A DNA stretch of 64,000 nucleotides from Bacteroidota bacterium. GTDB lineage: Bacteria > Bacteroidota > Bacteroidia > Flavobacteriales > BACL11. A model generated the notes under the pieces. The model did not search any database. It was given only the letters and a program-made list of their open reading frames with translations, and was not told the DNA's origin. The first letter of the stretch is position 1. Each line of letters starts with the position of its first letter. The stretch covers positions 11,913 through 75,912 of the forward strand of contig JAYYZX010000019.1 in the NCBI GenBank assembly GCA_036339955.1. The letters run 5' to 3'. Shown here one piece after another: positions 27,201 to 53,837 of the stretch. Both the position numbers and the translations under genes were made by a program.

Positions 27201-27639
27201 CGGAACAATTACTTTCCCATTTGAAGATTTACAGTTAGGAGAGCATACATTAACTGTTAAAATATGGGATGTCTTTAATAATTCTGCAGAATCTACAATT
27301 TCTTTCAAAGTAGTTGATGATGATGATATTACAATCTCAAATTTTTTAAATTATCCTAATCCATTTCATAATTCTACAGATTTTTATTTTGAAGTCAATA
27401 AACCGGATGAAGTTTTGGATATTTCATTAAATATATATTCTATTTCAGGAGTTTTAATTAGCACTGTTTCTACAAACATTGTTAATACTGGTTATCGAGT
27501 TGGTCCATTTCATTGGAATGGAGAAAACAGATTTGGCGAAAGAATAGAATCTGGACTGTATATTGCTAATTTAAATATAAAGTTCAAAAGTGGGGATTTT
27601 ATTTCAAAATCAAATCGTGTTATAATATTACCTAAATAA
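24262..27639 (+). CDS. porU: Type IX secretion system sortase PorU (C25/gingipain-like peptidase)
   Basis: 1125 aa. Signal peptide, a central caspase/gingipain-like region (YVLLFGDGSYDPK, INYTGHGGELGW, TATCKFSRFDD), a C-terminal YPNPF... beta-sandwich tail, and porV immediately downstream. Confidence 0.85.
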   Translation: MKFHYIFLYTLVWFFLTINAFSQSASVLSTGDWYKISVVQDGVHKISYADLQQLGVNTSNLSISSIGLFGNGGGMLPKLNSDFRYNDIQENAIQIIDENGNGLFENGDYILFFGQSPDRWQWNESTQLFQFDKHLYSSKTYYFLTTSMSSSPKRIAQKPIESTYSYTTSTFNNYKVHENENINLIGSGSIWYGEVFEIEKSHSIPFNFYNPDFNSLAYISCSVAARSLNPSTFTININGQILQQINISNIVNTYATAYAKTGFGSTSFSLPSSNFDIDINHNTTTNNSTGWLDYIEINLRSHLSMHNNHILFRDINTTSFLSSKFSISAADNLIIWDVTDPINVESIHAEFSNNQVTFIDETSTLKEYVAFYPNYYVTPTMEGSIVNQNLHASSNIEYVIISHPSFLDAANRLAEIYTQGAYKQFDWLTSVVVTTDQIYNEFSSGSQDISAIRDFLRMLHKEDDSVLKYVLLFGDGSYDPKDRIQNNTNYIPTFQSLNSTNPTITYVTDDFFALLDDDEGLFHDDLVDIGIGRMPVQSLTEAHQMVDKIEAYYSSDSFGDWRNVITFIADDGDANDGNVHMWQADSLANIVDAKYNSINIKKLYLDNFEQISTPGGPRSPAMQTAINRQIKKGSLLINYTGHGGELGWTQERILEVDQINQWDNINRLPLFMTATCKFSRFDDPEKTSAGEKVLLNPEGGAIALLTTTRLVYSSPNYNLNTKFINTLFNEGSTTAYRLGDIFKQTKRFSGTSVNNRNFTLLGDPALKLANPYYRIHTTNIKDTIRALEEVFVQGIITDTAGNIVSDFNGTVFPSVFDNEIIATTLGQESSTPMPYKSQENVIYKGAATVSNGVFSFSFIIPKDILYDYANGRISYYAVSDDELFDASGYNEDFIIGGVSLAAVYDNEDPEISLFMNNTNFVSGGITDENPSLLAFVSDFSGINTVGNGIGHDITAILDYESSNPIILNDYYVADRDNYQNGTITFPFEDLQLGEHTLTVKIWDVFNNSAESTISFKVVDDDDITISNFLNYPNPFHNSTDFYFEVNKPDEVLDISLNIYSISGVLISTVSTNIVNTGYRVGPFHWNGENRFGERIESGLYIANLNIKFKSGDFISKSNRVIILPK

Positions 27640-38900: not shown

Positions 38901-39317
38901 GGTCTAAATAGTTTAAAAAAGGATAATATTCGTTTTAAATTTGAATATATCACTAATTCATCTTATACAAATCGTTTTTACATTGATAATATTGAAATTG
39001 GAGAGAAAGCAGATTTATTAGCTGTTAATCAAAATCAAGACAAAATGAGTGCACGATTATCTACGTATCCAAATCCTTATGATCCAGATTTTGGGTTAAA
39101 TGTGAGACTAGATAATCTAAAGGATCAAAAAGTTAAAGTTCAATTAATTAACATCTTAGGTAAAGAAATAGGATTACTTTATAGTGGCACAGTATTATCA
39201 GATTCATATGTAATTGATAAAATAAATTTAAATGAATTCCCAAGGGGAATATATTTTATTACTATAATTACAGATAGCAAAACTATTTTAACAGATAAAC
39301 TTATTTTAAATAAGTAA
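35925..39317 (+). CDS. Secreted zinc metalloprotease, M43 (pappalysin/cytophagalysin-like), multi-domain, with T9SS C-terminal sorting domain
   Basis: 1130 aa. Signal peptide, an FN3-like segment (ATLHWESSSTPSYGYRVVYRK), the extended zinc motif HETGHWLGLCHPWD (HExxHxxGxxH), about 550 aa of unassigned sequence, and a C-terminal ...LSTYPNPYDP...GIYFITIITD... tail typical of T9SS CTDs. Confidence 0.8.
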   Translation: MKKHILSFFILLFAFSISFGQGQEVCGSYQGYLDDDKKKYPEFYNNLHEKELKLQKEYTKALESISTANTSSLYERKSTKNSIQAKSDVITGSCISPINPITDGITPNQATLHWESSSTPSYGYRVVYRKIGEWYGSYPWMTDTIKFKKDGQGNLVEEDSLVITRLTPDHTYEWQVRSMCDSIWEWVIFTDSMAIEWQDPINGYITYYSEDTSGAFVLTGSYQIVVDTLSSDTSIVTIMDTIGLTNLADFISTDPFLSTLKNPPGTTFLGIDESAWTSIRSFKTDKRTIPVVVHIIHDLGQENVSDEEVYMAIETLNKNINGQGYNFEARTPPVFAALRGVAGVEFKLAQKDPEGNPTTGILRVQSPLTFEPVPGNSVKTLSYWNSYEYYNIWVLRKFAPQDDGNTLLGYAQFPGQNMLTDGVVLIYSEFNDPTSATLTHETGHWLGLCHPWDCGSGTCGDDNIFDTPPARQANFGVSFNDFPYHVGLQNQGCIADSMNWAGEMFMNYMDYTPDQYTTMFSKDQVSKMHEILDGADANINIGYREYLWSPKNIVSAGIENSSGVQSASADILTWCKRNVDFKERRGDFSICEGEENWLESNKSIFGNTIDSCSWTLGGNTTISGGSLDDPGFLLFEYDSVGSYDVSIFIRYNEELTRESNNLRGFFPDSVDGVYLNIDDSIISLMESDIITQGSLSNSYLTNLFDSLASLGLIDALDSSIIPTSISMNIDQNIAQSHSAFTTETFSTIGATPTDTFSIDNLGIYWGINGMTYHRGLVNDTNYIAYYNGVCTSYKEEKDFIIVYPGTVGDTLESKIYTFDDAANFSKHGDPNTTNSIKDWIGYSNNDMDSLELYWSITGEGGTTIDHNSKTWEWVTWTSSDISQSSLMMNGYNNISLGTDELISKSYNLSALDTPAIRFNWAGAHFDEFPVNELNIYYSDNCGEDWKNVKDLSNLNPNPFEISPADLASSGYIPNTFFPSVDDWEEILIVDTIGLNSLKKDNIRFKFEYITNSSYTNRFYIDNIEIGEKADLLAVNQNQDKMSARLSTYPNPYDPDFGLNVRLDNLKDQKVKVQLINILGKEIGLLYSGTVLSDSYVIDKINLNEFPRGIYFITIITDSKTILTDKLILNK

Positions 39318-40073: not shown

Positions 40074-41518
40074 TTTTCTAATTCCTTTCTTAGTATTTCA
40101 TTTGTTAATTTTGGATCTGCTTTTCCTTTTGATAATTTCATAATTTCACCCATGAATAATCCAATTAAACCTTTTTTCCCATTTTTATATTCTAGCACTT
40201 TATCAGGATATTGTTTTATTATTTGATTTACATATTCATATAATGTACTATCATTACTTTCTTGGATCCAATTATTTTTTACAGCAATTTCTTCTGCAGA
40301 TATTTGTTTTTTTAGCATCTCAGGAAATATTTTTTTTGTCGCAATAGAATGACTTATTTTATTTGACTCTATAAGAGTAATTAGTTCTGCTAATTGTTGT
40401 GTAGTTAAAGGAAATTCTTGAATTGTTTTTGCATTTTCATTTAAATATGATTTGACTTCTCCATTGATTAAATTTGCCGCAGCTTTATAATTTTTTGTTT
40501 TATTACATAATTCATCAAAGTAGAAAGCAATGTCTTTATCTTCAATTATTATTGAAGCATCGTAATCTGATAAATTGTAATTTTTTATAAAACGATTTAA
40601 CAATTCTCTTGGTAAGGGAGGTAGATTCTCCTTGATATCCTTAATATATTTCTCGCTAATAATAACTGGCTGAATATCTGGTTCAGGGAAATATCGATAA
40701 TCATGGGCATCTTCTTTACTTCGCATAGAAACAGTTGACCCAGTAAGATCATTAAAACTTCTTGTTTCTTGAATAACTTTTTCTCCTTTTTCTAGAATTT
40801 GTATTTGTCGCTGAATCTCAAACTCAATAGCTTTTCTTACGTTTCTTGTAGAGTTCATATTTTTTACTTCTACTTTTGTCCCAAGCTTTACATCTTTTAT
40901 ATTCGCTACAGATATATTTGCATCACATCTCAAACTTCCTTCTTCCATATTACCATCACAAATCTCTAGATATTTCATAAGCTTACGAACTTCATTAATA
41001 TAGGAGCTAGCTTCTTTTGCAGAATTTATTTCTGGCTCTGAAACAATTTCTATTAAAGGAACTCCGGCTCTATTTAAATCTATTAAGCTATTAAAAGGAT
41101 CTAAATTATGAATGCTTTTCCCAGCATCTTCTTCCATATGAATACGTGTTAATTGAATTTTTTTAAAAGATCCATCTTTTGCTTTAATTTCTATGTACCC
41201 TCCTGTACAGATTGGTGTTGTGTCTTGCGTTATTTGATATCCTTTAGGTAAATCAGCATAAAAATAATTTTTTCTAGCATATTCATTTCTTATTGTAATA
41301 TTAGCATTGACAGCCAACCCCATTTTTATAGCATACTCTATCACTTTTTTATTAATCATCGGAAGAGTACCAGGATGCCCTAGTGTTATTGGTGATGTTT
41401 TAGTATTCGGTTTTGCCCCATAAATATTTTCTTCAGCAGAGTATGCTTTTGTATGAGTCCGTAATTGAGCATGTATCTCAAGACCTATAGTGGGCTTATA
41501 TGTTGCTTGTTTACTCAT
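40070..41518 (-). CDS. gatB: Asp/Glu-tRNA amidotransferase subunit B
   Basis: 482 aa. N-terminus YKPTIGLEIHAQL, plus RCDANISV and the C-terminal YqeY-like domain. Confidence 0.9.
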   Translation of the reverse strand: MSKQATYKPTIGLEIHAQLRTHTKAYSAEENIYGAKPNTKTSPITLGHPGTLPMINKKVIEYAIKMGLAVNANITIRNEYARKNYFYADLPKGYQITQDTTPICTGGYIEIKAKDGSFKKIQLTRIHMEEDAGKSIHNLDPFNSLIDLNRAGVPLIEIVSEPEINSAKEASSYINEVRKLMKYLEICDGNMEEGSLRCDANISVANIKDVKLGTKVEVKNMNSTRNVRKAIEFEIQRQIQILEKGEKVIQETRSFNDLTGSTVSMRSKEDAHDYRYFPEPDIQPVIISEKYIKDIKENLPPLPRELLNRFIKNYNLSDYDASIIIEDKDIAFYFDELCNKTKNYKAAANLINGEVKSYLNENAKTIQEFPLTTQQLAELITLIESNKISHSIATKKIFPEMLKKQISAEEIAVKNNWIQESNDSTLYEYVNQIIKQYPDKVLEYKNGKKGLIGLFMGEIMKLSKGKADPKLTNEILRKELEK

Positions 41519-42894
41519 TTAGTCAAATATAATTTTCCTGTAGATGAAATCCCTTTATAATCAATTACTTTGTAAATATAAATACCCGAAGTTATGCTTG
41601 AAGGGAGATATATTATATTTTCTTTTATATACTCTAGCTCTAAAACAGACTCCCCAAATAGATTATACAGATTTAATGACTTTGTTTTATATTTATTAAT
41701 ATATAAGTATTTGCTTGATGGGTTTGGGTATATTAAAATATTTTTGATATGTTCTTGTTGAGTAGATGTTTGAGTATTGTGACATTTTAAAACATATAAG
41801 CCAGTTTGCATATCAGAAACTAATATATTTCCAGATTTTAAATAAGGATATACACCCCAGGATCCCCTGTAAGAAATATGATCTGTTGGTAAATATGTGT
41901 CATAGTAATTGACTTGTATTGGATTTACTGGATTACTTATATCAAAAACTCTTAATCCATCATGATAATATGCTACATAAAGATAATCGCCTTTTATAAT
42001 TCCGTTATGTGCCATTGAGTTTGTGTCAACACCTGAATTGATAACAGATAATACTTGAATATTATTAAAATCACTTACATCAAATATTTTTATATCATAC
42101 CCATGATTTTCGTCTTGCATTGCATAAATTGTTCCATCATCATTTAGCCATCCTGAGTGATTATATCCCCCATCTGGATAAGATATAATTGGAAGTGAGG
42201 CTAATTCTGTTGGACTAACAGGAGTTGTGGTTCCTATTGTAGAAAAATCAACAATTCTTAAACCATCATATCCGCAATTAAGATATGCTGTATCATTTCG
42301 TACATAGGAATCATGTACATGTCCGACATTATTGTAAGTATATAGAAGAACAGGATTTACAGGGTTTGCTAATGAATAGATTTCCATTGCGGATGAGAAA
42401 TTATTTGGGTTTGTATGTTTTACTGCACATACATATAATTTAGCAGTTGCAGTATCAATGAATATATTATGAGCATTCGTGAATAAATTATTAGAGTCAA
42501 AAACGGTGTTAACTGAGCTTGGCAAATTGGATATATCTACAATTTTTAGTGTACTACTACTCCCTTCATCACATACAATATATAAATACCCTGCATAATC
42601 ATGATAATCTCTATGGATTACTCCTCCTCCAGTAAATGATCCGGGTATGAATGCTGACTCATAACTACTACTTGTATTTGTAATATCAAATATATGTGTT
42701 CCGGAAGTAGATCCTATAACTGCAAATTCATTTCCATTTACTTCTAGTCCCCATATTTCATTGTATATATTATTATATGCAAAAGACCCTATCAGAGATG
42801 TGTCCTGCCAATGATATTCTAGTGTAGTATTTAACTGACAAAAAGATACTTTAATAAACAAAAAATAAAATATAAGTATAATATCTTTCTTCAT
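41515..42894 (-). CDS. LVIVD-repeat / beta-propeller protein with T9SS C-terminal sorting domain
   Basis: 459 aa. Signal peptide, repeated (L/Y)xIxD(I/V)S... blades (LKIVDISN, LRIVDFST, IKIFDVSD, LRVFDISN), and the C-terminal tail LIYPNPSSKYLYI...GIYIYKV... Confidence 0.75.
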   Translation of the reverse strand: MKKDIILIFYFLFIKVSFCQLNTTLEYHWQDTSLIGSFAYNNIYNEIWGLEVNGNEFAVIGSTSGTHIFDITNTSSSYESAFIPGSFTGGGVIHRDYHDYAGYLYIVCDEGSSSTLKIVDISNLPSSVNTVFDSNNLFTNAHNIFIDTATAKLYVCAVKHTNPNNFSSAMEIYSLANPVNPVLLYTYNNVGHVHDSYVRNDTAYLNCGYDGLRIVDFSTIGTTTPVSPTELASLPIISYPDGGYNHSGWLNDDGTIYAMQDENHGYDIKIFDVSDFNNIQVLSVINSGVDTNSMAHNGIIKGDYLYVAYYHDGLRVFDISNPVNPIQVNYYDTYLPTDHISYRGSWGVYPYLKSGNILVSDMQTGLYVLKCHNTQTSTQQEHIKNILIYPNPSSKYLYINKYKTKSLNLYNLFGESVLELEYIKENIIYLPSSITSGIYIYKVIDYKGISSTGKLYLTK

Positions 42895-42897
42895 TTA

Positions 42898-43707
42898 TTA
42901 TATATCTTTAATTAATTGTTTAATGATAAGAGTAAGTTTTGGTTCTGCAATTTCTGCAACAGCCTGCACATCTTCATGTGTGACTTTTTTTATTTTCCCA
43001 GCAACTCCCAAATCAGTAATTACAGAAATAGCAAAACAAGGTATTTGCATATGTCGCGCTACAATTACTTCAGGGACAGTAGACATTCCTACTGCATCTC
43101 CACCAATAATTCTAATAAATTTATACTCTGCTGGTGTTTCTAAGCAGGGCCCCGTTACTGCTACATATATGCCTTTTTGTAAATTAATATTATTTTCATT
43201 TCCAATTCTTTCAGCAATCTTTATTAATCTAGAATCATATGCATCACTCATATCAGGGAATCTAGTCCCTAGTGTCTTTAAATTTGGACCAATTAAAGGG
43301 TTAGGAATTAAGTTGATATGATCAGTTAGAATCATTAAGTCTCCAATTTTAAAATCAGGATTTACTCCTCCACTTGCATTTGAAACAATTAGTTTTTCTA
43401 TACCCATCATATACATAATTCTCACAGGTAATGTAACTTCTTGCATATTATATCCTTCATAAAAATGAAATCTTCCTTGCATTACCATTACATTCTTTCC
43501 TGATAAAACTCCAAAAATCATACGTCCAGAATGTCCTTCTACTGTTGATATTGGAAAATTTGGAATATCTTGATAATCAATAGTATGATTAATTTTTATT
43601 TCTGATATTAATCCTCCAAGTCCAGTACCTAATATTATTCCAATTTCTGGTTGAGTATTTGTCTTTTTTAGTAAAAAATCACTAATTTTTGTTATTTGTT
43701 TTAACAT
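42898..43707 (-). CDS. Purine nucleoside phosphorylase (trimeric PNP family)
   Basis: 269 aa. GIILGTGLGG, STVEGHSGRMIFG, VSNASGG and GMSTVPEV motifs. Confidence 0.85.
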   Translation of the reverse strand: MLKQITKISDFLLKKTNTQPEIGIILGTGLGGLISEIKINHTIDYQDIPNFPISTVEGHSGRMIFGVLSGKNVMVMQGRFHFYEGYNMQEVTLPVRIMYMMGIEKLIVSNASGGVNPDFKIGDLMILTDHINLIPNPLIGPNLKTLGTRFPDMSDAYDSRLIKIAERIGNENNINLQKGIYVAVTGPCLETPAEYKFIRIIGGDAVGMSTVPEVIVARHMQIPCFAISVITDLGVAGKIKKVTHEDVQAVAEIAEPKLTLIIKQLIKDI

Positions 43708-44725
43708 AACTTATAATTTGGTTTTTAAACATCTCTTCATTTTTACATTTTATTTCGATTGGCATAGAATAAACAGGTATATTCTTAAATAATGTTTTAA
43801 ATCTTTTTAATCGTACAGCATCTTTTTCGGTGGTTAAGATAAGTGTTTTGAAGCTTTTTTCAGAATTATATTTCTCTAAAATCTTTAAAATATTTTCTTT
43901 TTTGAATTCATGATGGTCATTATACTCTATATGTTCAACTAGAAAGCCTTGTTTTTCAAGTGAATGCTTTATATTTTTCGCATATACAATACCAGTAATT
44001 AATATTATTTTCTTGAATGAGCTCAATATGTTATCATTATCTACATACCTAAATATTGGATTCCATTTAGAGTATTTTATATAAGAAAAGAAGATGTCTT
44101 GTTTCTTTAGAGGAACTAATTTCTTAATTATACTCTCTTTTTCTATATTATTAATATCTTTTGGACATTTACTCATAATTATTATATCTGCTCTTTTTTT
44201 AGCATAATTTCCTTCTCTTAGTGTTCCTGCAGGTAAAACATTATTTTTATAAAAAGGGATTTGATATGAAGTAATGAGAATATTAAGTCCTGGATTTACC
44301 CATCTATGTTGGAATGCATCGTCCAGAATAATTACATCAACATCTGTATATTCAGACAAAATTTGATTAATTCCTTTCTTTCTGGATTCACATACAGCAA
44401 TAAGACAATCCGGAAATTTATTTTTAAGCTGTAATGGTTCGTCACCAACTTTCTTGTAATCATCCAGTATATTTACAGCAATAAAGCCATTAGTATTTCT
44501 TCCATAACCTCTACTTAAAACCGCTATTTTATATTTATTTTGCAGAATATTTATTATATATTCTACATGTGGAGTCTTCCCTTCACCTCCCATAGATAAG
44601 TTCCCAACTGATATTATAGGGATTTTAAATGATGTTGAAGGGAAAATCCCAATATCAAAACAAATATTACGTATATAAGTAATTAAGCTATATATCCACG
44701 AGAAGGGAAGTAATAAAAAACGCAT
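43682..44725 (-). CDS. lpxK: Tetraacyldisaccharide 4'-kinase
   Basis: 347 aa. P-loop VGNLSMGGEGKTP and LSRGYGR. The 3' end overlaps the pnp start by 26 nt. Confidence 0.85.
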   Translation of the reverse strand: MRFLLLPFSWIYSLITYIRNICFDIGIFPSTSFKIPIISVGNLSMGGEGKTPHVEYIINILQNKYKIAVLSRGYGRNTNGFIAVNILDDYKKVGDEPLQLKNKFPDCLIAVCESRKKGINQILSEYTDVDVIILDDAFQHRWVNPGLNILITSYQIPFYKNNVLPAGTLREGNYAKKRADIIIMSKCPKDINNIEKESIIKKLVPLKKQDIFFSYIKYSKWNPIFRYVDNDNILSSFKKIILITGIVYAKNIKHSLEKQGFLVEHIEYNDHHEFKKENILKILEKYNSEKSFKTLILTTEKDAVRLKRFKTLFKNIPVYSMPIEIKCKNEEMFKNQIISYVKTNNKN

Positions 44726-44729
44726 GCTG

Positions 44730-44737
44730 CAAAGATA
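44730..44737 (-). promoter_or_regulatory. -7 promoter box TAnnTTTG upstream of lpxK
   Basis: The minus strand reads tatctttg. Its G is 4 nt before ATG 44725. Confidence 0.4.
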
Positions 44738-44772
44738 GTTAATACTTAACTCTTATTTATCTTTCAATTTCT

Positions 44773-44780
44773 TACTTTTG
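44773..44780 (+). promoter_or_regulatory. -7 promoter box TAnnTTTG upstream of the Nif3-like gene
   Basis: tacttttg. Its G is 4 nt before ATG 44785. Confidence 0.4.
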
Positions 44781-44784
44781 GGGC

Positions 44785-45879
44785 ATGAAAATAAAAAATA
44801 TTATTACTTATTTAGAGGAAGTCGCTCCATTATATTATCAAGAATCATATGATAATTCTGGACTGTTATTAGGGAATAGTGAATTAGAAGTCACATCAGC
44901 TCTAATTGCATTGGATTGTACAGAAAGTATTATTGAAGAAGCAATTCAAAATAAATGCAATTTGATTATTACGCATCACCCTCTTATTTTTTCTAAATTA
45001 AGTAAAATAACAGGATCCGACTATATACAACGAATTATTATTAAAGCAATTAAACATGACATTGCTATTTATGCGATACATACTAACTTAGATAATATAT
45101 ATCATGGAGTTAATCATAGAATTTCAGAGAAATTAGGGTTAGTAAATACAGCAATACTATCTCCCAAGGATAATCTAATTATGCAGCTTGTAGTATATTG
45201 TCCTAAAAAATATACGAAAAAGATTCAAAAAGCTTTATTTGATTCTGGTGCTGGGAATATTGGTAATTATAATGAATGTAGTTTTATTTCACAAGGTATT
45301 GGCACTTTTCAGCCACTACAAGAAGCACAACCTAAAATTGGGTCCATAGGAGAAAGGTATTCAGGAAATGAAGAAAGAATTTCTGTAGTTTTTCCAAAAC
45401 ATTTAAGATTTCAGATTATTAAAGCGATGGAACGTGCTCATCCATATGAGGAAGTTGCATATCAGATTCATACAATAGATAATCTTAATCAACATGTAGG
45501 TTCTGGAATGATAGGGGAGTTACTTCAGCCTGTATCTGCAACTAAATTTTTACAATATGTTAAGAAGAAAATGCAAGCAACAAATATACGTTACAGCAAT
45601 ATAGTAAAAAAACAAATTAAAAAAGTTGCAGTTTGTGGAGGTAGTGGGAGTTTTTTAATTCAAGAAGCTAAATGTCTAGAAGCAGATATTTTTATAACTA
45701 GTGATATTAAATATCATGATTTCTTTCTTGCAGATAACAGAATAATTCTTGCAGATATTGGACATTATGAAAGCGAACAATTTACAAAGGAATTAATTTC
45801 GGATTTGCTTATTAAAAAATTTCCTAAATTTGCGGTCCTATTATCAAAGATCAGAACTAATCCTATAAATTATTTATAA
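44785..45879 (+). CDS. Nif3-like dinuclear metal centre protein (GTP cyclohydrolase 1 type 2 homologue)
   Basis: 364 aa. YDNSGLLLG, ITHHPLIF, AIHTNLD and GHYESE motifs with an inserted PII-like domain. Confidence 0.85.
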   Translation: MKIKNIITYLEEVAPLYYQESYDNSGLLLGNSELEVTSALIALDCTESIIEEAIQNKCNLIITHHPLIFSKLSKITGSDYIQRIIIKAIKHDIAIYAIHTNLDNIYHGVNHRISEKLGLVNTAILSPKDNLIMQLVVYCPKKYTKKIQKALFDSGAGNIGNYNECSFISQGIGTFQPLQEAQPKIGSIGERYSGNEERISVVFPKHLRFQIIKAMERAHPYEEVAYQIHTIDNLNQHVGSGMIGELLQPVSATKFLQYVKKKMQATNIRYSNIVKKQIKKVAVCGGSGSFLIQEAKCLEADIFITSDIKYHDFFLADNRIILADIGHYESEQFTKELISDLLIKKFPKFAVLLSKIRTNPINYL

Positions 45880-45881
45880 TA

Positions 45882-46637
45882 ATGGCTAAAACGACAAAGA
45901 CAAAAAAGAAAGTTTCAACTTCTGCAAAAGATAAATTACAGTTCCTATACAAACTCCAATTAATTGATTCAGGTATTGATAGTGTGCGTATTGTCAGAGG
46001 AGAATTACCAATAGAAATACAGCAATTAGAGGATCAGATTACTCATTTAGATACTAAAGTTCAAAACGGCAATAATGAGTTAACCGCTATTGAAGAAGAG
46101 CAAATATCTTATAAAGAGACTATTAAAAACGCAAAAGCATTAGTAAAAAAATATAAAAAACAACTTGAGAATATAAAAAATAATCGTGAGTTTATATCCT
46201 TAACTAAGGAGGTTGAATTTCAAACTTTAGAAATTGAACTTTCTGAGAAAAAAATAAAAGAGGCAGATGCTAAGTTGAGTATTAAGAATGACACAGTGAA
46301 AATAATCAAGTCTGAAAAAAAAGATAAGAATACAGAATTAAAAATAAAAACAGAAGAGCTAGATTCTATTGTTAAAGAGACAGAAAAAGATGAGAAATCG
46401 TTACTAAGAAAATCAACTAATGCACAAAAGAATATAGATGAAGGCTTATTAAATCTATATCATAGAATCCGAGAGAAGGTTACCAATGGATTAGCTGTAG
46501 TTTCTATAGAAAGAAATGCATGCGGAGGATGTTTTAACACTATACCTCCACAAAAACAATTAGATATTGGCATACATAAAGAAATTGTTTTCTGTGAACA
46601 TTGTGGTAGAATATTAGTAGACTCAGAGACTTTGTAA
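45882..46637 (+). CDS. Coiled-coil protein with C-terminal C4 zinc ribbon (DUF164-like)
   Basis: 251 aa. Long coiled coil followed by CGGC...CEHCGR. This is the usual partner downstream of Nif3 genes. Confidence 0.75.
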   Translation: MAKTTKTKKKVSTSAKDKLQFLYKLQLIDSGIDSVRIVRGELPIEIQQLEDQITHLDTKVQNGNNELTAIEEEQISYKETIKNAKALVKKYKKQLENIKNNREFISLTKEVEFQTLEIELSEKKIKEADAKLSIKNDTVKIIKSEKKDKNTELKIKTEELDSIVKETEKDEKSLLRKSTNAQKNIDEGLLNLYHRIREKVTNGLAVVSIERNACGGCFNTIPPQKQLDIGIHKEIVFCEHCGRILVDSETL

Positions 46638-46689: not shown

Positions 46690-48177
46690 ATGCGGTATTT
46701 TCTAATATTATTTTTTTTAGCTTCTTCCTTTCAATTAGAAGCAAAGTTTGAAGTTAATGATAATATGAAGAATGCATATTCTTATATTATTAATCTTGAT
46801 ATTGAAAATGCTAAAAATTTATTAAGTAAAGAAAGACAGATTAACCCTAATAATGGTATAGTTGATTTATATGAGAATTATATTGATTTTCTACATTTAT
46901 TAACAAGTGGTGAAGATGAAGTTTTATTTCAAGAATTAAACAAAAACAAATTAAAAAGAATAAGAAATATTAAACGTAATGATAATATTTCTCCATACTA
47001 TTTATATAGCCAAGCCGAAATTCATTTACAATGGGCATTTACAAGAATAAAATTTGGTGAATATGTCACGGGAGCTTATGAGATCCAGAAAGCATATTTT
47101 TTACTAAAGAAGAATGAAAGAATTTTCCCTAATTTTTATTTAAACAATAAAAATCTAGCAGTATTATATGCTCTTATTGGATCTATTCCAAAACAATATC
47201 AATGGTTAACTGGTTTAATCGGAATGGAGGGGGATATACATAAGGGGCTTAGTGAGTTAAATAATTTCTTTTATTTAACTCAGACAGATCCAGAGTATGA
47301 ACAATATAACATAGAAACGATTCTTTTACTTTCTTTTTTACAGATGAATATTAGTAATGAAAATAAAGATTATGAAGAATTACTATCCACTATACATGAT
47401 AAGTATAAAACAAATAAATTATTAAAACTTTGTGCAGCGCGACTAGCTCACAAGTTAGGTGACAATAAATTAAGTTTACAGATATTAAATCACATTCCCC
47501 CAGAAGACAAAACATTACCTATTTATTATTTTGATTATTTGTTAGGAATGTCAGAGTTGTATAACTTAAATTATGAAATTGCATCACGATATTTCAAAAG
47601 ATTTTTACAAAATTCTAGAGGGAGAAAGCACTATATTAAATCTAGTTATCATAAGTTAGCTCTAATATCTTTTCTGTTAGGGAATGATCAATCTATGAGC
47701 CATTACTTCAATTTAATTCTCTTAAATGGAGATATATTTATTGATGAAGATAAAAAAGCACAATTAGATGCAGAAAGAAAGAAGATATATCACCAATCAT
47801 TGTTAAAATCTCAATTATTGTATGATGGGGGATACTATAAACAGTCATTATTAGAATTGGAGAAAAGTTCTAAATCACTATTTAATCAAAATGATATTTC
47901 AGAATATTGGTATCGAAAAGGAAGAATTGCACAACGAATGCATGAGCCACCATCTAAAATTATTGAATATTTTTCTCAGTCATATAATAAGGGTCAGGGC
48001 TTGAAAGCATATTTCCCTCCTATGTCTTCCTTGCAAATTGGTTATGAATATGAGAAGCTAGGGAATATAAGTAAGGCTAGAGCATTTTATAAAAAATGTT
48101 TATTATTCTCTAATTTTGATTATGAGAGAGGTATTCATCAAAAGGCAAAAGTTGCACTTACAAGATTAAATCGCTAA
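46690..48177 (+). CDS. Secreted all-helical TPR-like protein (possibly DUF3808 / TTC39-Iml2-like)
   Basis: 495 aa. Signal peptide MRYFLILFFLASSFQLEA and helical-repeat character. LTGLIGMEGDIHKGLSELN resembles, from memory, the conserved G-D-x-x-x-G-L motif of the TTC39/Iml2 family. Confidence 0.35.
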   Translation: MRYFLILFFLASSFQLEAKFEVNDNMKNAYSYIINLDIENAKNLLSKERQINPNNGIVDLYENYIDFLHLLTSGEDEVLFQELNKNKLKRIRNIKRNDNISPYYLYSQAEIHLQWAFTRIKFGEYVTGAYEIQKAYFLLKKNERIFPNFYLNNKNLAVLYALIGSIPKQYQWLTGLIGMEGDIHKGLSELNNFFYLTQTDPEYEQYNIETILLLSFLQMNISNENKDYEELLSTIHDKYKTNKLLKLCAARLAHKLGDNKLSLQILNHIPPEDKTLPIYYFDYLLGMSELYNLNYEIASRYFKRFLQNSRGRKHYIKSSYHKLALISFLLGNDQSMSHYFNLILLNGDIFIDEDKKAQLDAERKKIYHQSLLKSQLLYDGGYYKQSLLELEKSSKSLFNQNDISEYWYRKGRIAQRMHEPPSKIIEYFSQSYNKGQGLKAYFPPMSSLQIGYEYEKLGNISKARAFYKKCLLFSNFDYERGIHQKAKVALTRLNR

Positions 48178-49616
48178 TATTTAAATCGAGCAGTTACAAC
48201 AAAATTATGATTTGTTTCTACTATTGGGGAGACAGCTTCATTATACATTTCATATTCACTGCTATTCTTAGATAGAACGTATGCTCCATCTATAGAGAAA
48301 TTACCATTTGTTATACCAAGGCCATAGGTGAAGTTCTCTTTTGAGTAATTTTCATTCTTTGAAACATAAGGATTCCCAAATAATGCATACCCAGCTCTAA
48401 ATGAGATAAACTTTAATCTTATTTCTCCTCCAACTCGCAAATTTTGAGCACGTGTATATGTATCTTTTATATTCTGATTGATATTATTTTCTTGTTCCGG
48501 AAAATTTTTAAAATTAAATTTTGAGAATGAATAATCAATTAATTCGTAATCTATATTTATTAAAATTCTTTTTGTAATATTACCTCCTGCAGATATAATT
48601 GTTTTCCATGGACTTAACATTTGATATTCAAATACAGGAGTAGTATATGCTGAAGAGGTGATATTTGTCGTGATTTCTGTATTGAAAAGTCGACGCATAC
48701 TATATATACTTGGAGAATGGAGGGCTAGACCAAGTTTTACTCTTTTATTTAACCTCCCAATTATACCAAGCTTTAAGTTTAATCCATACCCATATATAGA
48801 TAATTCATCTTTATATGTAAATTCGTTGATAGATCCTAATGTATCTAATATTGTAGCTGTCATGGTTTCTGAAAATTCTTTTTCAACATGCGTATTAAAT
48901 CGATAATAATTGATATTTGGGATTCCTATTGTTGCTCCTATGTAAATTTTTTCTTTATATGATGTAGCTAATGAAAAGTTTAATTCTCCACGATAACCAC
49001 TAGATTCTACTTGTCTTATAGTTCTTTTATTAGTACTTGTTATAATATTTGGTGTATATGTTGTGTTACTCACTGGGTTGTCAATGAGGTAAGTCTCCCA
49101 TGCCAGGAGTTCGGCTATACCGAGCTCATCTACTGTAAGACCATTAGAATTTTTAATCAGATTATTTACTAATGAGGTTTTATTTTGATATCCATCTATA
49201 TATACAGAGCGGTTATAATTAGCAAATTGATTCCATCCAATTGCTAAATTGATTCGTTTCCATTTTTTATTGTTAGAAACTCCTGACCATACTAATCCAA
49301 AATTTGAAATTCCAACTCCCATTTTTTGATCTTCATTTTTATTATTAAAATAACTTGTTGCGGTATTATTATGAAATGAAGGACTAATAGATAATTCATT
49401 GAATTGATACATGCCAATACCTGCAGGATTATATTTTGCAGATGAAAAATCTGCTCCCAAAATACCAAATCCTCCTCCTACACCAACAGATCTAGCACTT
49501 CCAATAATATCTTCATTAGCATAATACAGAGCTCTTGTTTCCCAGTTATATGGAGCTACTTGAGCATGAGTTGTTGCATGTATAAGGAGGAAAATAATAA
49601 GTAATACCTTTTTCAT
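48174..49616 (-). CDS. Outer-membrane beta-barrel protein, FadL/OmpP1/TodX-like
   Basis: 480 aa. Signal peptide, then GSARSVGVGGGFGILGADFSSAKYNPAGIG, a FadL-type N-terminal hatch pattern. Alternating beta-strand sequence with the C-terminal ...VVTARFKY. Confidence 0.55.
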   Translation of the reverse strand: MKKVLLIIFLLIHATTHAQVAPYNWETRALYYANEDIIGSARSVGVGGGFGILGADFSSAKYNPAGIGMYQFNELSISPSFHNNTATSYFNNKNEDQKMGVGISNFGLVWSGVSNNKKWKRINLAIGWNQFANYNRSVYIDGYQNKTSLVNNLIKNSNGLTVDELGIAELLAWETYLIDNPVSNTTYTPNIITSTNKRTIRQVESSGYRGELNFSLATSYKEKIYIGATIGIPNINYYRFNTHVEKEFSETMTATILDTLGSINEFTYKDELSIYGYGLNLKLGIIGRLNKRVKLGLALHSPSIYSMRRLFNTEITTNITSSAYTTPVFEYQMLSPWKTIISAGGNITKRILINIDYELIDYSFSKFNFKNFPEQENNINQNIKDTYTRAQNLRVGGEIRLKFISFRAGYALFGNPYVSKNENYSKENFTYGLGITNGNFSIDGAYVLSKNSSEYEMYNEAVSPIVETNHNFVVTARFKY

Positions 49617-49617
49617 G

Positions 49618-50463
49618 TTATTTTCTAGGTTTTCTGTTGTTCTTTTTTAAATTCTGTTTTTTTGTAGAACTTGAATTTCTTTGTTGATTATAATTATTTT
49701 TTGTTGACCTGGATTTTGAATATTTTGTAGAATTTTTAGTGTTATATGAACGAGAATTATTAGGATCTTTTTGCGGGCTGTTCTTTATATTGGTTTTTAT
49801 ATTCTCTCTACTATATGTTCGTTTAGTACTTTTATTTTTTGATTCTATTAAATTCTTATATTTTTTCTTGAGTGTTGTATTTACATAACTACGCTTTCCA
49901 GTATTACGGTAGTTGGATGATAAAGAGCCAACAAAACCATGATATATATTGTTATTTGTACTACCATAATTATGATTATGATGATTATAATAATAAGAGT
50001 AATAGGGATTTGCATAATATATCGAATTATGGTAAGGGTAGTAAATCCCTGACCAATAGTGATAAGGCCATTCCCAATTATAACTCAAATATATGCTGTT
50101 CCCCCAATACCAAGGGTCATATGTATACCAATAATAATCTGTAAAAAAACCGCCATAATAGTCAGTATAATAGATTGAAGGATTATAAAATCTCTTTATT
50201 CGAGCAGCATAACTAAAATCATGATACCTATTATAGTCATCCATAGTATGATTATAGTTTTGAATAGTATTTTCTGTAGAGTCTATTATATCAGTATTTT
50301 GTTTCTGATTGTATGATGAGATTTCTTCGTATGAAACAAACTCATCAGCTTGTAAATAATTAGGGTCATTATAGCGTGTATGATAAGTTGTCTCACATGA
50401 TGAAAATATTAATATTACAATTAATAATTTTGAGTAAACTCTTTTTATTTTTTTGAGATCCAT
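49618..50463 (-). CDS. Lipoprotein with extreme Tyr/Trp/Asn-rich core and polybasic Ser/Asn/Lys tail (no family recognised)
   Basis: 281 aa. Lipobox LIFSSC. Residues about 98-167 contain 24 Tyr, 6 Trp and 2 Phe by my count. The last roughly 95 residues are K/R/S/N/T-rich. The stop is 1 nt before the barrel gene start. Confidence 0.6.
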   Translation of the reverse strand: MDLKKIKRVYSKLLIVILIFSSCETTYHTRYNDPNYLQADEFVSYEEISSYNQKQNTDIIDSTENTIQNYNHTMDDYNRYHDFSYAARIKRFYNPSIYYTDYYGGFFTDYYWYTYDPWYWGNSIYLSYNWEWPYHYWSGIYYPYHNSIYYANPYYSYYYNHHNHNYGSTNNNIYHGFVGSLSSNYRNTGKRSYVNTTLKKKYKNLIESKNKSTKRTYSRENIKTNIKNSPQKDPNNSRSYNTKNSTKYSKSRSTKNNYNQQRNSSSTKKQNLKKNNRKPRK

Positions 50464-50549
50464 ATTATTAATTTGTTAACTTTGTTTCTCTTACTTCTTA
50501 GAATTAGAAACGTAAATTATACAACAAAATTACAATATTTATCTAAAAA

Positions 50550-52022
50550 ATGGGAAAAACTTTAACATCTAGAGAAGAAGATTACTCAAAGTGGTATAAC
50601 GATATTGTCCAGAAAGCTGACTTAGCAGAAAATTCTGGTGTTCGTGGCTGTATGGTAATTAAACCTTATGGATTTGCTATATGGGAAAAAATGCAAAATG
50701 AATTAGATAAAATGTTTAAAGCTACTGGCCATGTTAATGCCTACTTTCCATTATTTATTCCAAAATCTTTTTTTAGTAAAGAAGCTGATCATGTTAAGGG
50801 TTTTGCAAAAGAATGTGCTGTTGTAACACATTATAGATTGAAAGATTCTCCTGATGGGGATGGTATTATTGTAGATGAGGATTCTAAGTTAGAAGAAGAG
50901 CTTATTATTCGGCCAACTTCAGAAACAATTATTTGGGACACCTATCGTAAATGGATACAATCGTATAGAGATCTACCATTATTAATTAATCAATGGGCAA
51001 ATGTTGTTAGATGGGAGATGCGCACCCGTCTTTTTCTAAGAACAGCAGAGTTCTTATGGCAGGAAGGGCATACTGCTCATGCTACTCGTGATGAAGCAAT
51101 TGAAGAAACAGAAAAGATGATAAATATTTATGCGGACTTTGCAGAGAGATTCATGGCAATGCCAGTAATAAAAGGATTAAAATCAGAGGCTGAGCGTTTC
51201 TCTGGAGCTTTAGAAACGTATTCTATTGAAGCTCTTATGCAAGATGGGAAAGCATTACAAGCAGGAACTTCTCATTTTTTAGGACAGAACTTTGCTAAAG
51301 CATTTGATGTGAAATTTACCAATAAAGAAGGGAAACAGGATTTTGTATGGGCAACATCTTGGGGCGTTTCGACGCGTTTAATGGGAGCTCTTATTATGAC
51401 ACATTCTGATGATAATGGATTAGTTTTACCACCTAAATTAGCTCCTTTTCAGGTGGTGATTGTTCCTGTATATAAAAATAAGGAAGAGTTTAAAAGCATT
51501 TCAGAACAAGTAAGCTTAATACAAACTAAGTTAGAAGAAAAAGGTATTTCGGTTAAGTATGACAATAGAGATACACATAAACCTGGATGGAAATTCGCAG
51601 AGTATGAATTAAAAGGAGTCCCTATACGTTTAACTTTAGGCCCAAAAGATTTAGCAAATAGTACTGTAGAGGTTGCTCGTAGAGATACATTAGAAAAAGA
51701 AATATTGAAAATTTCTGACATTGAGATTAAACTAGAGAACTTACTTAATAAAATTCAAGATAATTTATACAAGAAGGCAGCTACATTTCGAGAAGAAAAA
51801 ACATATGTTGCCAATAATTTAGATGAGTTCAAAAAATATATTAAAGAAGGTGGTTTTGTATACGCTCATTGGGATGGCACTTCTGATACTGAAGAAAACA
51901 TCAAAAAAGAAACAAAAGCTACCATACGATGCATTCCGTTAAGCAATAAACAAGAAGAAGGAGAATGTGTATTTTCAGGAAACCCTTCTGAAAGACGTGT
52001 TTTATTTGCAAAATCATATTAG
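50550..52022 (+). CDS. proS: Proline--tRNA ligase (archaeal/eukaryote-like type)
   Basis: 490 aa. Class II motifs ([30 protein letters not shown]) and a C-terminal Zn-binding-like domain ending in ...AKSY. Confidence 0.9.
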
Positions 52023-52077
52023 AAATACGGGTTTAACAATATCATGCTTAGATTTTTGTCAATTTTTGAAAAAATCA

Positions 52078-52085
52078 TAGATTTG
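52078..52085 (+). promoter_or_regulatory. -7 promoter box TAnnTTTG upstream of tRNA-Glu and rpsT
   Basis: tagatttg, 27 nt upstream of the tRNA 5' end. TTG-containing sequence lies about 20 nt further upstream. Confidence 0.45.
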
Positions 52086-52112
52086 CAATCTCGTTCTGAC
52101 GAGAGGCAATCT

Positions 52113-52184
52113 GGCCCGGTCGTCTAGTGGTTAGGACGCCAGGTTTTCATCCTGGTAACCGGGGTTCGATTCCCCGTCGGGCTA
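52113..52184 (+). tRNA. tRNA-Glu (anticodon UUC)
   Basis: GGCCCGGTCGTCTAGTGGTTAGGACGCCAGGTTTTCATCCTGGTAACCGGGGTTCGATTCCCCGTCGGGCTA folds by hand into a cloverleaf. Anticodon stem CCAGG/CCTGG, loop TTTTCAT, T-loop TTCGATT. CCA is not encoded. Confidence 0.9.
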
Positions 52185-52198
52185 CAAAAAATAAAATT

Positions 52199-52453
52199 AT
52201 GGCAAATCATAAATCGGCAATAAAGAGAATTAGACAAACTGCAACAAAAAATGCTTCTAATAAATATCAGCATAAAACAGCACGAAATTCTGTTCGTAAA
52301 TTAAAAGCAACAACTAAAAAGAAAGAAGCTAAAGTGTTGTTCCCAAAAGTTGTAGGAATCTTAGATAAGCTTGCAAAGAATAATATTATACATAAAAATA
52401 AGGCGGCAAATATCAAATCTCAGTTAGCTAAACACGTTAATACTCTAAAATAG
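52199..52453 (+). CDS. rpsT: 30S ribosomal protein S20
   Basis: ORF 52127-52453 trimmed to MANHKSAIKRIRQ, the canonical S20 N-terminus. The upstream part of the ORF is the tRNA-Glu gene read as protein. Confidence 0.9.
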   Translation: MANHKSAIKRIRQTATKNASNKYQHKTARNSVRKLKATTKKKEAKVLFPKVVGILDKLAKNNIIHKNKAANIKSQLAKHVNTLK

Positions 52454-52487
52454 TATTATAACATTAATATTTCATTATTTTTATAAA

Positions 52488-53141
52488 ATGGAAGTTTATA
52501 ACATAGGAGAACAAAATACTCTCTTAAGTAATTTTATTTCAGAAATTCGTGAGATTAATATTCAACAAGATTCTTTACGATTTAGAAGAAACTTGGAGCG
52601 TGTAGGAGAAATTCTTGCATATGAAATTAGTAAAACATTACAATATACTTCTAAAAACATTAAAACGCCACTTGGAATATCTAAAGAAAATGTAATATTT
52701 AATACGCCAGTTTTAGCTACTATATTAAGAGCAGGATTACCTTTACATCAAGGATTTCTTAATTATTTTGACAAAGGAGAGAATACTTTTATTTCTGCGT
52801 ATAGAGATGAAAAAGAGAATGGCACTTTTGATGTTAAAGTGGAGTATATGTCTTCTCCATCTTTAGAATCTAAAACAATTATTTTATGTGATCCAATGCT
52901 TGCTAGTGGTTCATCGATGGTTTTAGCACTTGAAGCATTACTTACTAAAGGAACTCCAGCTCATATTCATATTGCTGTAGTTATTGCCAGTAATCAGGGA
53001 ATAGAATATTTATCTAAAAACTTACCATTTAAAAATTGCACATTTTGGGTTGCTGCTATTGATAATGAGATGACGCCTAATTCATATATAGTACCAGGAC
53101 TAGGTGATGCTGGAGATTTAGCATTCGGAAAAAAAATATAG
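52488..53141 (+). CDS. upp: Uracil phosphoribosyltransferase
   Basis: 217 aa. PRPP-binding loop ILCDPMLASGSS and the C-terminal YIVPGLGDAGD. Confidence 0.85.
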   Translation: MEVYNIGEQNTLLSNFISEIREINIQQDSLRFRRNLERVGEILAYEISKTLQYTSKNIKTPLGISKENVIFNTPVLATILRAGLPLHQGFLNYFDKGENTFISAYRDEKENGTFDVKVEYMSSPSLESKTIILCDPMLASGSSMVLALEALLTKGTPAHIHIAVVIASNQGIEYLSKNLPFKNCTFWVAAIDNEMTPNSYIVPGLGDAGDLAFGKKI

Positions 53142-53837
53142 ATGAGATTTCAGCATATTTTTTTTGATTTAGATCGGACATTGTGGGATTTCGAATCAAA
53201 TTCTTTTGACACATTAGTTGAGTTATTTCAAAAATTTGATTTAGAGAAAAGAGGTATCATTTCTGCAAAATGGTTTATTGAGAAATATAGGCTAAATAAT
53301 GAGAACCTATGGAATAAGTATAGAAAAGGAAAAATAACAAAAGATTATTTAAGAGATGTAAGGTTTTCTATGACTTTAGAGGAGTTTGGAATTTTTGATC
53401 AAGATCTATCTTCAAAATTAGGGAATGCTTATGTAGTGAATTCTCCAAAAAAAACTAAGTTATTCCCACATACACTTTCTATTCTGAAATATCTCACTAA
53501 GAAAGGCTATCATTTGCATATTATTACAAATGGATTTCAAGAAGTACAGATAATCAAATTAGAACATTCGTCATTAATATCATTTTTTAAACAGATCATT
53601 ACTTCAGAAGAAGCTGGCGTCAAGAAGCCTAATCCAATTATTTTTAAATATGCTTTAGAACATGCTAATTCTATATTAGAGAATAGTATCATGATAGGAG
53701 ATGATTTAGAAGTTGATATTATTGGAGCCAAGAATTTTGGAATATCACAAATTTATTTTAATCGAAATCAATTGACACATAATGAAGAAATTGATTATGA
53801 GATTAGATGTTTAAGTCAGTTACGGGAGATATTTTAA
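53142..53837 (+). CDS. HAD-superfamily hydrolase, YjjG-like nucleotidase
   Basis: 231 aa. Motif I FFDLDRTLWDF, motif II ITNG, and KKPNP...IGDD. Confidence 0.75.
   Translation: MRFQHIFFDLDRTLWDFESNSFDTLVELFQKFDLEKRGIISAKWFIEKYRLNNENLWNKYRKGKITKDYLRDVRFSMTLEEFGIFDQDLSSKLGNAYVVNSPKKTKLFPHTLSILKYLTKKGYHLHIITNGFQEVQIIKLEHSSLISFFKQIITSEEAGVKKPNPIIFKYALEHANSILENSIMIGDDLEVDIIGAKNFGISQIYFNRNQLTHNEEIDYEIRCLSQLREIF

Follow-up and report, generated by a model that had tools for sequence, protein, structure and literature searches.

A 64,000-nt stretch of Bacteroidota DNA with ~30% GC (assembly GCA_036339955.1, contig JAYYZX010000019.1; the whole stretch is referred to as the window) carries two closely spaced genes whose products are a lipoprotein of extreme composition (gene 1) and an outer-membrane barrel (gene 2). 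It raises the question of whether this pair is a true functional module and which function it may serve. A first-pass annotation, based on the sequence alone, had proposed a two-gene outer-membrane module made of a lipoprotein of no recognised family and a FadL/PorV-like barrel. Our analysis indicates that the pair is a real, non-random, conserved and unannotated module with a putative function. With a confidence that stays a little below even, we favour a housekeeping outer-membrane complex: the barrel would serve as a platform, the disordered gene 1 protein as a partner facing the periplasm and the basic tail of this partner as a tether.

The stop codon of gene 1 (TAA) is separated by a single C from the ATG of gene 2, a gap of 1 nt. 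This spacing, the coordinates of both open reading frames (ORFs), the lipobox LIFSSC, the aromatic residues counted in the gene 1 core and the hatch motif of the barrel, GADFSSAKYNPAGIG, were all as first annotated. The conservation of the pair was studied on the 80 best loci of a scan of one genome per species with the barrel alignment, which belong to Flavobacteriales/Cryomorphaceae, Weeksellaceae, Bacteroidales, Lentimicrobiaceae, Prolixibacteraceae, Chitinophagales and Saprospiraceae. A gene 1 orthologue, in which a lipobox precedes a Tyr-rich region, an RRF motif and a basic tail, was present directly upstream of the barrel in ~70 of the 80 genomes, and the gaps between the two genes were mostly of 2–130 nt. 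Every long contig containing a barrel homologue displayed, directly upstream, an ORF of 276–454 aa with one common architecture. Five loci had no upstream ORF, the contig ending too near the barrel in three of them, and a few others contained fragments only. The first annotation had considered that gene 1 might prove poorly conserved or absent beside the barrel in relatives, as a fast-evolving filler ORF would be; this is clearly not the case, and the conserved position, motifs and architecture in relatives indicate that gene 1 is not a filler ORF.

The conservation extends to the neighbourhood of the pair. The proS gene was found upstream and divergent in 71 of the 80 loci. Hymenobacter gelipurpurascens and a 4.5-Mb genome likewise showed the order proS, gene 1, gene 2. 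A gene for a Zn-ribbon protein (PF02591) was located nearby in 38 loci and was followed by NIF3 and LpxK wherever wider flanks were read. In 33 loci, including those of Lentimicrobium and other Bacteroidales, a gene resembling tetratricopeptide repeat (TPR) proteins was convergent downstream of the barrel.

Since a GC content of ~30% favours Tyr, Asn and Lys codons, the composition of gene 1 was compared with that of the 51 other window ORFs of at least 150 aa, in which aromatic residues represent 10.5% and Tyr 4.4%. The richest 70-aa stretch of gene 1 contains 33 aromatic residues, vs 17 in the next-best ORF. The last 95 residues, first described as made almost only of Lys, Arg, Ser, Asn and Thr, include 71 of these (75%; K21, N18, S14, T10, R8), with a net charge of about +26 to +27, vs 45 residues and +17 in the best other ORFs. 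The composition of gene 1 (binomial P ~1e-13) is thus far beyond chance for the host genome. A tandem-repeat origin of the low-complexity regions was considered and rejected, the region not being a DNA tandem repeat.

A search with the single gene 1 sequence returned only 4 homologues. A profile of its conserved half recovered 189 proteins, all from Bacteroidota and none with a Pfam domain, which are called hypothetical wherever they are named; the two exceptions are an automatically assigned "Ni/Co efflux regulator RcnB" and a partial sequence labelled "TolA". When a hidden Markov model (HMM) of the family was run exhaustively against 1.84 billion cluster representatives, 4,184 of them matched at E≤1e-3, and 631 did so at the stricter E≤1e-30; the ten that were looked up were all unnamed or hypothetical. 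In agreement with the first description of gene 1 as belonging to no characterised family, none of 71 sequences (gene 1 and 70 relatives) matched any Pfam family, sequence and profile searches of NCBIfam and PDB gave no match for gene 1, and full-text literature searches found no paper describing the family.

The members of this family share a fixed order of elements (coordinates for the window protein are given in Table 1). The lipobox is followed by an N-proximal motif (YNDPNYL..DEF in Flavobacteriales, Y-x-D-D-(I/V)-Y-Y-S in other orders), located 7–11 residues past the Cys in many members and in which D33 and Y36 are invariant or nearly so. After an acidic linker comes the basic motif, with Y80, R91 and F92 invariant; its [RKN][ILVM][RKS]RF signature is present in most of the 80 loci. 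Then follow an aromatic block (YYTDYYWYxYDPWYWGxSIYLGYNW) and a variable Y/G/N/P/H-rich stretch, closed by RGSLSS in Flavobacteriales or YYGPR in other orders, the counterparts of GFVGSLSS in the window protein. A long basic low-complexity tail ends in a basic C-terminus (KPRK, RPR or GRR). In some lineages the disordered parts evolve via repeat expansion, as seen in a relative (L011, 4718-5977) with about ten tandem QPRNE-type pentapeptide repeats in the tail and a (GY)n run in the aromatic region. The closest relatives of gene 1, 58–60% identical, come from ENA metagenome contigs.

The properties of the variable parts were measured on 56 cleanly parsed syntenic orthologues from loci of 26–50% GC. 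Tyr accounted for 8.5–17% of the mature protein. The net charge of the last 100 residues was always positive, from +5 to +27, and Lys in the tail was replaced by Arg with rising GC (r = -0.69). The charge of the tail is thus kept across GC contents while its sequence varies; what is conserved is a property, the cationic, polar and disordered character of the tail, rather than a sequence. Selection acting on disordered segments leaves this mark, which rules out an artefact of composition. AlphaFold2, run with 71 sequences, gave for gene 1 a mean predicted local distance difference test score (pLDDT) of 52 and a predicted template modelling score (pTM) of 0.21. The signal peptide alone was modelled confidently, and the sole other helix (residues 80–90, YHDFSYAARIK) was of low confidence. 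The gene 1 protein is best viewed as an intrinsically disordered chain that contains short linear motifs under conservation.

The N-terminus of gene 1, KLLIVILIFSSC, consists of a hydrophobic signal peptide followed by a lipobox with its Cys, as expected of a signal peptidase II substrate. By a rule cited in PMC12578637, surface export of Bacteroidota lipoproteins is associated with at least 2 acidic residues among the six that follow the lipid Cys. In the window protein, this stretch (CETTYHT) includes one. No acidic residue was present in these positions in 55 of the 56 syntenic orthologues, and 56 of 57 family members had 0–1 acidic residues after the Cys; the export signal is therefore absent from the family. 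Most orthologues have a lipobox. In at least 6 members, by a count made by eye, its place is taken by a signal of the signal-peptidase-I type, so that the lipid anchor is dispensable. In these members the predicted mature N-terminus (Gln) lies at, or a few residues from, the DD(I/V)YY motif, which fits retention through protein docking. The N-proximal motif probably serves for docking.

The barrel was modelled with high confidence from a 74-sequence alignment (pLDDT 87.6, pTM 0.84), and its predicted structure displays the FadL fold, in which the lumen of the barrel houses an N-terminal hatch. When the model was compared with PDB using Foldseek, the first three matches were BamG chains, from Flavobacterium johnsoniae (9n2d_B), Bacteroides thetaiotaomicron (9hiv_F) and Porphyromonas gingivalis (9hjm_F), with E values of 3.5e-15 to 1.2e-13, template modelling (TM) scores normalised to the target of 0.63–0.69 and identities of 12–14% (13% for F. 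johnsoniae). FadL, TodX, TbuX and CymD came next (E ~1e-13 to 1e-11, TM 0.5–0.6), and PorV (8gl6_F; E 3e-5, TM 0.38/0.47) was far behind BamG and FadL (TM 0.55–0.57). FadL-type barrels have 14 strands, of which strand 3 is kinked and so gives a lateral opening. For the model of the window barrel, secondary structure assignment with DSSP gave 16–18 strand segments, with a break at 134–135 within a long strand (119–144) that could be the strand-3 kink.

Within the barrel, conservation is highest in the mature N-terminal tail, of consensus QNExDALRYS, and in the hatch. GADFSSAKYNPAGIG corresponds to residues 54–68 and includes the NPA motif (N63-P64-A65, nt 49422-49430); across 74 sequences, N63 and P64 do not vary, whereas A65 is at least 90% conserved. 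The first residue after the signal peptide, Q19, is also at least 90% conserved, which fits the Bacteroidota Q-rule (PMC10653852). Aligned by eye, NPA corresponds to N33-P34-A35 of E. coli FadL; by the same approach, the stretch that precedes NPA in the mature protein exceeds that of E. coli FadL by 7 residues in the family consensus, and by 12 in the window barrel.

At the sequence level, the window barrel had no Pfam match at E≤1, while PF03349 (Toluene_X) matched 4 of 12 relatives (best E 4.5e-8) and the name OmpP1/FadL family transporter is attached to some relatives. The PorV_fam model (NCBIfam NF033709) scored 34 bits (E 2e-8) over the C-terminal part only, for a cut-off of 90 bits. The BamG equivalog (NF053685, cut-off 250 bits) did not match the window barrel and gave 21 bits with the best relative, P0116. 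An hhalign comparison of the barrel profile with E. coli FadL was not significant, and PDB sequence searches with profiles of both families and of the TPR-like neighbour yielded nothing meaningful. The failure to pass the sequence thresholds of BamG, PorV and Pfam FadL indicates that the window barrel is a distinct, unnamed paralogue in the FadL superfamily, the FadL/PorV-like assignment of the first-pass annotation being upheld at the level of the superfamily and of the fold. We found 170 homologues and, in the scan of one genome per species, relatives in at least 561 genomes; cross-order orthologues are ~32% identical to the window barrel.

Some traits are particular to the window barrel. 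Compared with 70 of 73 aligned homologues, it has insertions of ~5 residues in the N-terminal tail (residues 20–25, VAPYNW) and of ~10 residues (~249–258) in the loop assigned as L3, modelled with low confidence. Both are shared by P0006, its closest relative (72% identity). An identical protein (P0005) lies on a 9.5-kb Logan contig, and the best match in the genome collection is only 42% identical, so that the host is apparently not represented there at the species level.

On the reading that we favour, the gene pair would be a conserved outer-membrane module that Bacteroidota need constitutively. We infer that the gene 1 protein and the barrel form a complex because of their tight and conserved adjacency. 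The barrel would probably be a membrane platform holding a partner protein, like its Bacteroidota paralogues, rather than a free-standing nutrient channel. BamG acts as the anchor of the lipoprotein BamH, and PorV binds type 9 secretion system (T9SS) cargo (PMC12611786, PMC12578637), which provides a precedent for protein docking by FadL paralogues in this phylum. A conserved N-terminal extension distinguishes BamG from transporting FadL channels (PMC12578637, PMC12611786), and the extended, conserved N-tail of the window barrel resembles it, as judged from the by-eye count. The gene 1 protein, usually lipid-anchored, would sit on the periplasmic side of the outer membrane and may dock to the barrel through three short conserved elements: YxDD(I/V)YYS / YNDPNYL, RIRRFHxP and the first part of the Tyr/Trp-rich core. 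The variable Y/G/N/P-rich stretch and the long Pro/Ser/Thr/Asn/Lys/Arg tail with its basic C-terminus would then project into the periplasm, where the tail may act as a flexible cationic tether for an anionic target, possibly peptidoglycan or phospholipid head groups.

Several points weigh against this reading. The interaction between the two proteins is deduced rather than directly evidenced, each having been modelled separately by AlphaFold2. The hatch and NPA, the most conserved parts of the barrel, would be equally expected of a working FadL-type channel, and several tips of the loops assigned as extracellular (HSPT, TPWK) are conserved, which could point to a ligand or partner outside. 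The absence of an export signal is a statistical rule and no proof of a periplasmic location; moreover, a disordered loop of Bacteroidota BamA that is rich in Tyr, Gly and Asn is extracellular (PMC12578637). The anionic target of the tail is itself putative. Finally, many orthologues end in Arg (GRR, RPR or PRR) and not in Lys as in the window protein, which makes a covalent Lpp-like link to peptidoglycan through a terminal Lys unlikely; this form of tether was rejected.

A bolder version of the same idea, possible but doubtful, is that the module adds a fourth functional class to the three formed by FadL, PorV/PorQ and BamG among FadL-fold barrels. It would be a phylum-wide, as yet unnamed machine in which a disordered Tyr/Trp-rich protein is docked in, or threaded through, the barrel by its conserved linear motifs and links the outer membrane by its cationic tail to peptidoglycan or to the inner membrane. 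If true, this would amount to a Bacteroidota-specific device for envelope tethering or outer-membrane homeostasis in a phylum without Lpp.

Among the other explanations, canonical FadL-type uptake of long-chain fatty acids or aromatic compounds survives best, although we regard it as unlikely. The aromatic-rich lipoprotein would then capture the substrate, or hand it on, at the periplasmic face. In Vibrio cholerae, a fadL homologue is co-transcribed with the lipoprotein VolA, which speaks for such a role, as do the strong structural matches to FadL, TodX, TbuX and CymD (E ~1e-13), the invariant NPA within the most conserved segment, the PF03349 matches and transporter names of some relatives, and a Tyr/Trp-rich surface that could stack on hydrophobic ligands. 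However, the conserved neighbourhood contains no lipid or aromatic catabolic genes, just proS, NIF3, the Zn-ribbon gene and LpxK, and retention of the module across the phylum beside a housekeeping gene is unlike what is seen for substrate-specific uptake loci. The partner is predicted to have no folded binding domain, and the extended conserved N-tail resembles that of BamG, not that of transporters (PMC12578637).

The absence of the lipoprotein export signal in 55 of 56 orthologues bears most directly on the proposal, made in the first-pass annotation, of a surface adhesive, matrix or extracellular DNA-binding role, which it weakens. In its present form, this explanation holds that an amyloid-like or adhesive Tyr/Lys-rich protein is carried to, or threaded through, the barrel and forms a sticky or fibrous polyanion-binding layer. 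It draws on the extreme and conserved Y/N/G-rich polybasic composition, on the predicted disorder of gene 1, on the conserved loop tips of the barrel (in our own topology assignment) and on the ability of FadL paralogues of this phylum to hold the surface proteins BamH and T9SS cargo (PMC12611786). Since, besides the missing signal, Pfam finds nothing in the gene 1 family, hence no T9SS C-terminal domain, and the module sits in a housekeeping locus, we consider it improbable.

A role as an accessory of outer-membrane biogenesis, with the barrel as a BamG-like subunit on BamA or on another Omp85/TamA-type protein and the Tyr-rich protein acting on nascent barrels or lipoproteins, seems to us more improbable still. 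Despite the first three structural matches being BamG chains of three species, the BamG equivalog is far from reached (21 vs 250 bits for the best relative), identity to F. johnsoniae BamG is 13% vs ~32% between orders within the barrel family, and the partner is not a DUF4270/BamH protein. The barrel is not reported among the subunits of the β-barrel assembly machinery (BAM) purified from F. johnsoniae (BamA/D/G/H/M/P; PMC12611786), nor among those of B. thetaiotaomicron and P. gingivalis (BamA/D/G-K; PMC12578637). In favour of this role, a second operon, BamG2-BamH2, exists in Bacteroides, which implies that there are paralogous barrel-lipoprotein modules, and the disordered Tyr/Gly/Asn-rich loop of BamA is similar in composition to the gene 1 core (PMC12578637); LpxK and a TPR-like, periplasmic protein are also syntenic, and in P. 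gingivalis the FadL-like PG_0448 adjoins a TPR protein, PG_0449.

An accessory of T9SS or of gliding, in the form of a PorV/PorQ-like shuttle with a dedicated partner, appears very unlikely. The host genome does encode T9SS cargo and a C25 (PorU-like) peptidase, and the barrel has a weak match to PorV_fam (34 bits, E 2e-8) and a structural one to PorV (E 3e-5). The PorV-like shuttle put forward earlier is nevertheless weakened by a score below the cut-off of 90 bits and by a fold match much weaker than those of BamG and FadL (TM 0.38 vs 0.55–0.57), and the conserved neighbourhood contains no T9SS genes, nor the partner a T9SS C-terminal domain. As for gene 1 being a fast-evolving filler or spurious ORF born of AT-rich composition, the low GC and the 4 homologues of the single-sequence search might have suggested it, but its chance is negligible and it is refuted by the architecture, motifs and position kept in ~70 of 80 genomes at 26–50% GC and by thousands of relatives found by profile.

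Table 1. Position in the window of the gene pair, of its parts and of neighbouring or related genes
Feature	Position	Strand	Description
Gene 1	49618..50463	-	281-aa lipoprotein precursor; ORF; Bacteroidota-wide unannotated family, predicted disordered
Signal peptide and lipobox LIFSSC, Cys23	50395..50463	-	Read from the sequence
N-proximal motif YHTRYNDPNYLQADEFVSY, residues 27-45	50329..50385	-	From gene 1 family alignments
Basic motif YHDFSYAARIKRFYNP, residues 80-95	50179..50226	-	Family consensus DDYYDYxYAxRIRRFHxP
Tyr/Trp-rich core, residues 98-167	49963..50172	-	24 Tyr, 6 Trp and 2 Phe, 46% aromatic
GFVGSLSS, residues 176-183	49915..49938	-	End of the aromatic region; from family alignments
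Polybasic K/R/S/N/T tail, residues 187-281	49621..49905	-	Ends in the conserved C-terminus RKPRK
TAATTTTG	50525..50532	-	Match to the -7 promoter consensus TAnnTTTG, ~62 nt upstream of the gene 1 ATG; pattern match only
Gene 2	48174..49616	-	480-aa FadL-fold outer-membrane barrel; unnamed paralogue of BamG, FadL and PorV
Mature N-terminal tail and hatch, residues 19-73	49398..49562	-	Most conserved segment of the barrel
TPR-like gene	46690..48177	+	495-aa signal-peptide protein with weak TPR matches, convergent with gene 2
Housekeeping block	43682..46637		LpxK, NIF3/DUF34, Zn_ribbon_9 protein
Housekeeping block, past the gene pair	50550..53837		ProRS, ribosomal protein S20, UPRTase, HAD hydrolase
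T9SS-related gene	24262..27639	+	1125-aa Peptidase_C25 (PorU-like)
T9SS-related gene	35925..39317	+	1130-aa M43 peptidase with Por_Secre_tail
T9SS-related gene	41515..42894	-	459-aa LVIVD-repeat protein with Por_Secre_tail

The surroundings of the pair in the window are listed in Table 1. The host genome possesses type 9 secretion, to which the three T9SS-related genes of the table belong. The stops of the TPR-like gene and of gene 2 overlap in a common CTAA (4 nt), and this convergent overlap recurs in distant Flavobacteriales relatives (L001, L002, L004 and L006). The TPR-like protein itself has no NCBIfam or PDB match. Relatives only ~40% identical at the barrel protein show a near-identical gene order around the pair. 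The 86-nt gap between gene 1 and the divergent proS contains TAATTTTG, a match to the Bacteroidota -7 promoter consensus, TAnnTTTG; a scan for sigma-70 promoters and terminators was also run and is uninformative for Bacteroidota.

The interest of this locus lies in the envelope of a phylum, the Bacteroidota, that dominates in gut, mouth and ocean and builds its outer membrane differently from E. coli. Type 9 secretion has PorV among its core parts, and in 2025 two groups identified another FadL paralogue, BamG, as a core part of the Bacteroidota BAM machine. The locus points to a further conserved FadL paralogue, with a partner of an unexpected kind: disordered, ~13% tyrosine and provided with a cationic tail. 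The family of this partner comprises ~4,000 cluster representatives (E≤1e-3) without any Pfam or NCBIfam entry, and the module is fixed beside proS in genomes of several orders. Should the pair prove to be an envelope tether or a biogenesis factor, it would supply an entry that is missing from the inventory of Bacteroidota envelope parts and offer a tractable case of a conserved disordered protein at a membrane. It is also a concrete pair that can be found in any cultured member as the two genes divergent from proS, and a named orthologue in a model organism could reveal existing phenotypic data.

In P. gingivalis, PG_0448 (FadL-like, 14 strands) adjoins PG_0449, a periplasmic, O-glycosylated TPR protein reported to be essential by transposon sequencing (PMC1887533, PMC10653852 and its supplement, PMC8729774). 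The size of PG_0448 fits P. gingivalis BamG better, so that it stays a mere candidate orthologue of the window barrel; PG_1625/PG_1626, of which PG_1626 is a second FadL-like protein, were also considered as candidates. Two other candidates were set aside: pep25/lbp26 of Flavobacterium collinsii, which are spreading and glycosylation genes and for which the part of the source available to us describes no FadL-like barrel or Tyr-rich lipoprotein, and PosF with FadL of Riemerella, for which no link to the gene pair was found.

Among known systems, the FadL/TodX/TbuX channels (PF03349) share with the window barrel the fold (E ~1e-13) and the N-terminal hatch with its invariant NPA, and some of its relatives reach the Pfam model. 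They differ in that the window barrel itself matches neither Pfam nor, significantly, E. coli FadL by hhalign, has a longer N-tail, and comes with a conserved co-encoded disordered partner and no catabolic gene context. PorV and PorQ belong to the same superfamily, give a weak C-terminal HMM match and also bind partner proteins; the low bit score, the much weaker fold match and the lack of a T9SS C-terminal domain in gene 1 set them apart.

As to the disordered partner, RcsF with OmpA/C/F in E. coli is an example of a disordered lipoprotein segment threaded into, or docked on, a barrel. In Bacteroidota, a loop of BamP sits inside BamA (PMC12611786). Both have in common with the gene pair an unstructured lipoprotein segment held by a barrel, with short conserved contacts in a variable chain; they show no sequence relationship to it, and threading in the gene pair is hypothetical. 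Loop EL3 of BamA (PMC12578637) is like the gene 1 core in its Tyr/Gly/Asn-rich composition, disorder, outer-membrane location and phylum, but is an extracellular loop of 38 residues, whereas the gene 1 region spans 70 to more than 150 residues in a separate protein without a surface-export signal.

The closest parallel is BamG-BamH, or BamG2-BamH2 (Bt1785-Bt1786), in which a FadL-fold barrel is the platform for a lipoprotein and, for BamG2-BamH2 in Bacteroides, the barrel and lipoprotein genes form an operon (PMC12578637). The BamG chains are the best structural matches of the window barrel, and both have an N-terminal tail that is conserved and, by eye, extended. In contrast, the window barrel is ~70–90 residues longer, shares 13% identity with BamG and falls outside its equivalog, and BamH is a folded, surface-exposed DUF4270 protein, unlike the gene 1 protein, which is predicted to be disordered and has neither export signal nor Pfam domain. 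Taken together, these comparisons suggest by analogy that the gene pair may work most like the BamG-BamH or BamG2-BamH2 arrangement, yet is not a member of it. The known kind here is the FadL-paralogue barrel with a partner lipoprotein; what is new is the uncharacterised and unusual family to which this partner belongs.

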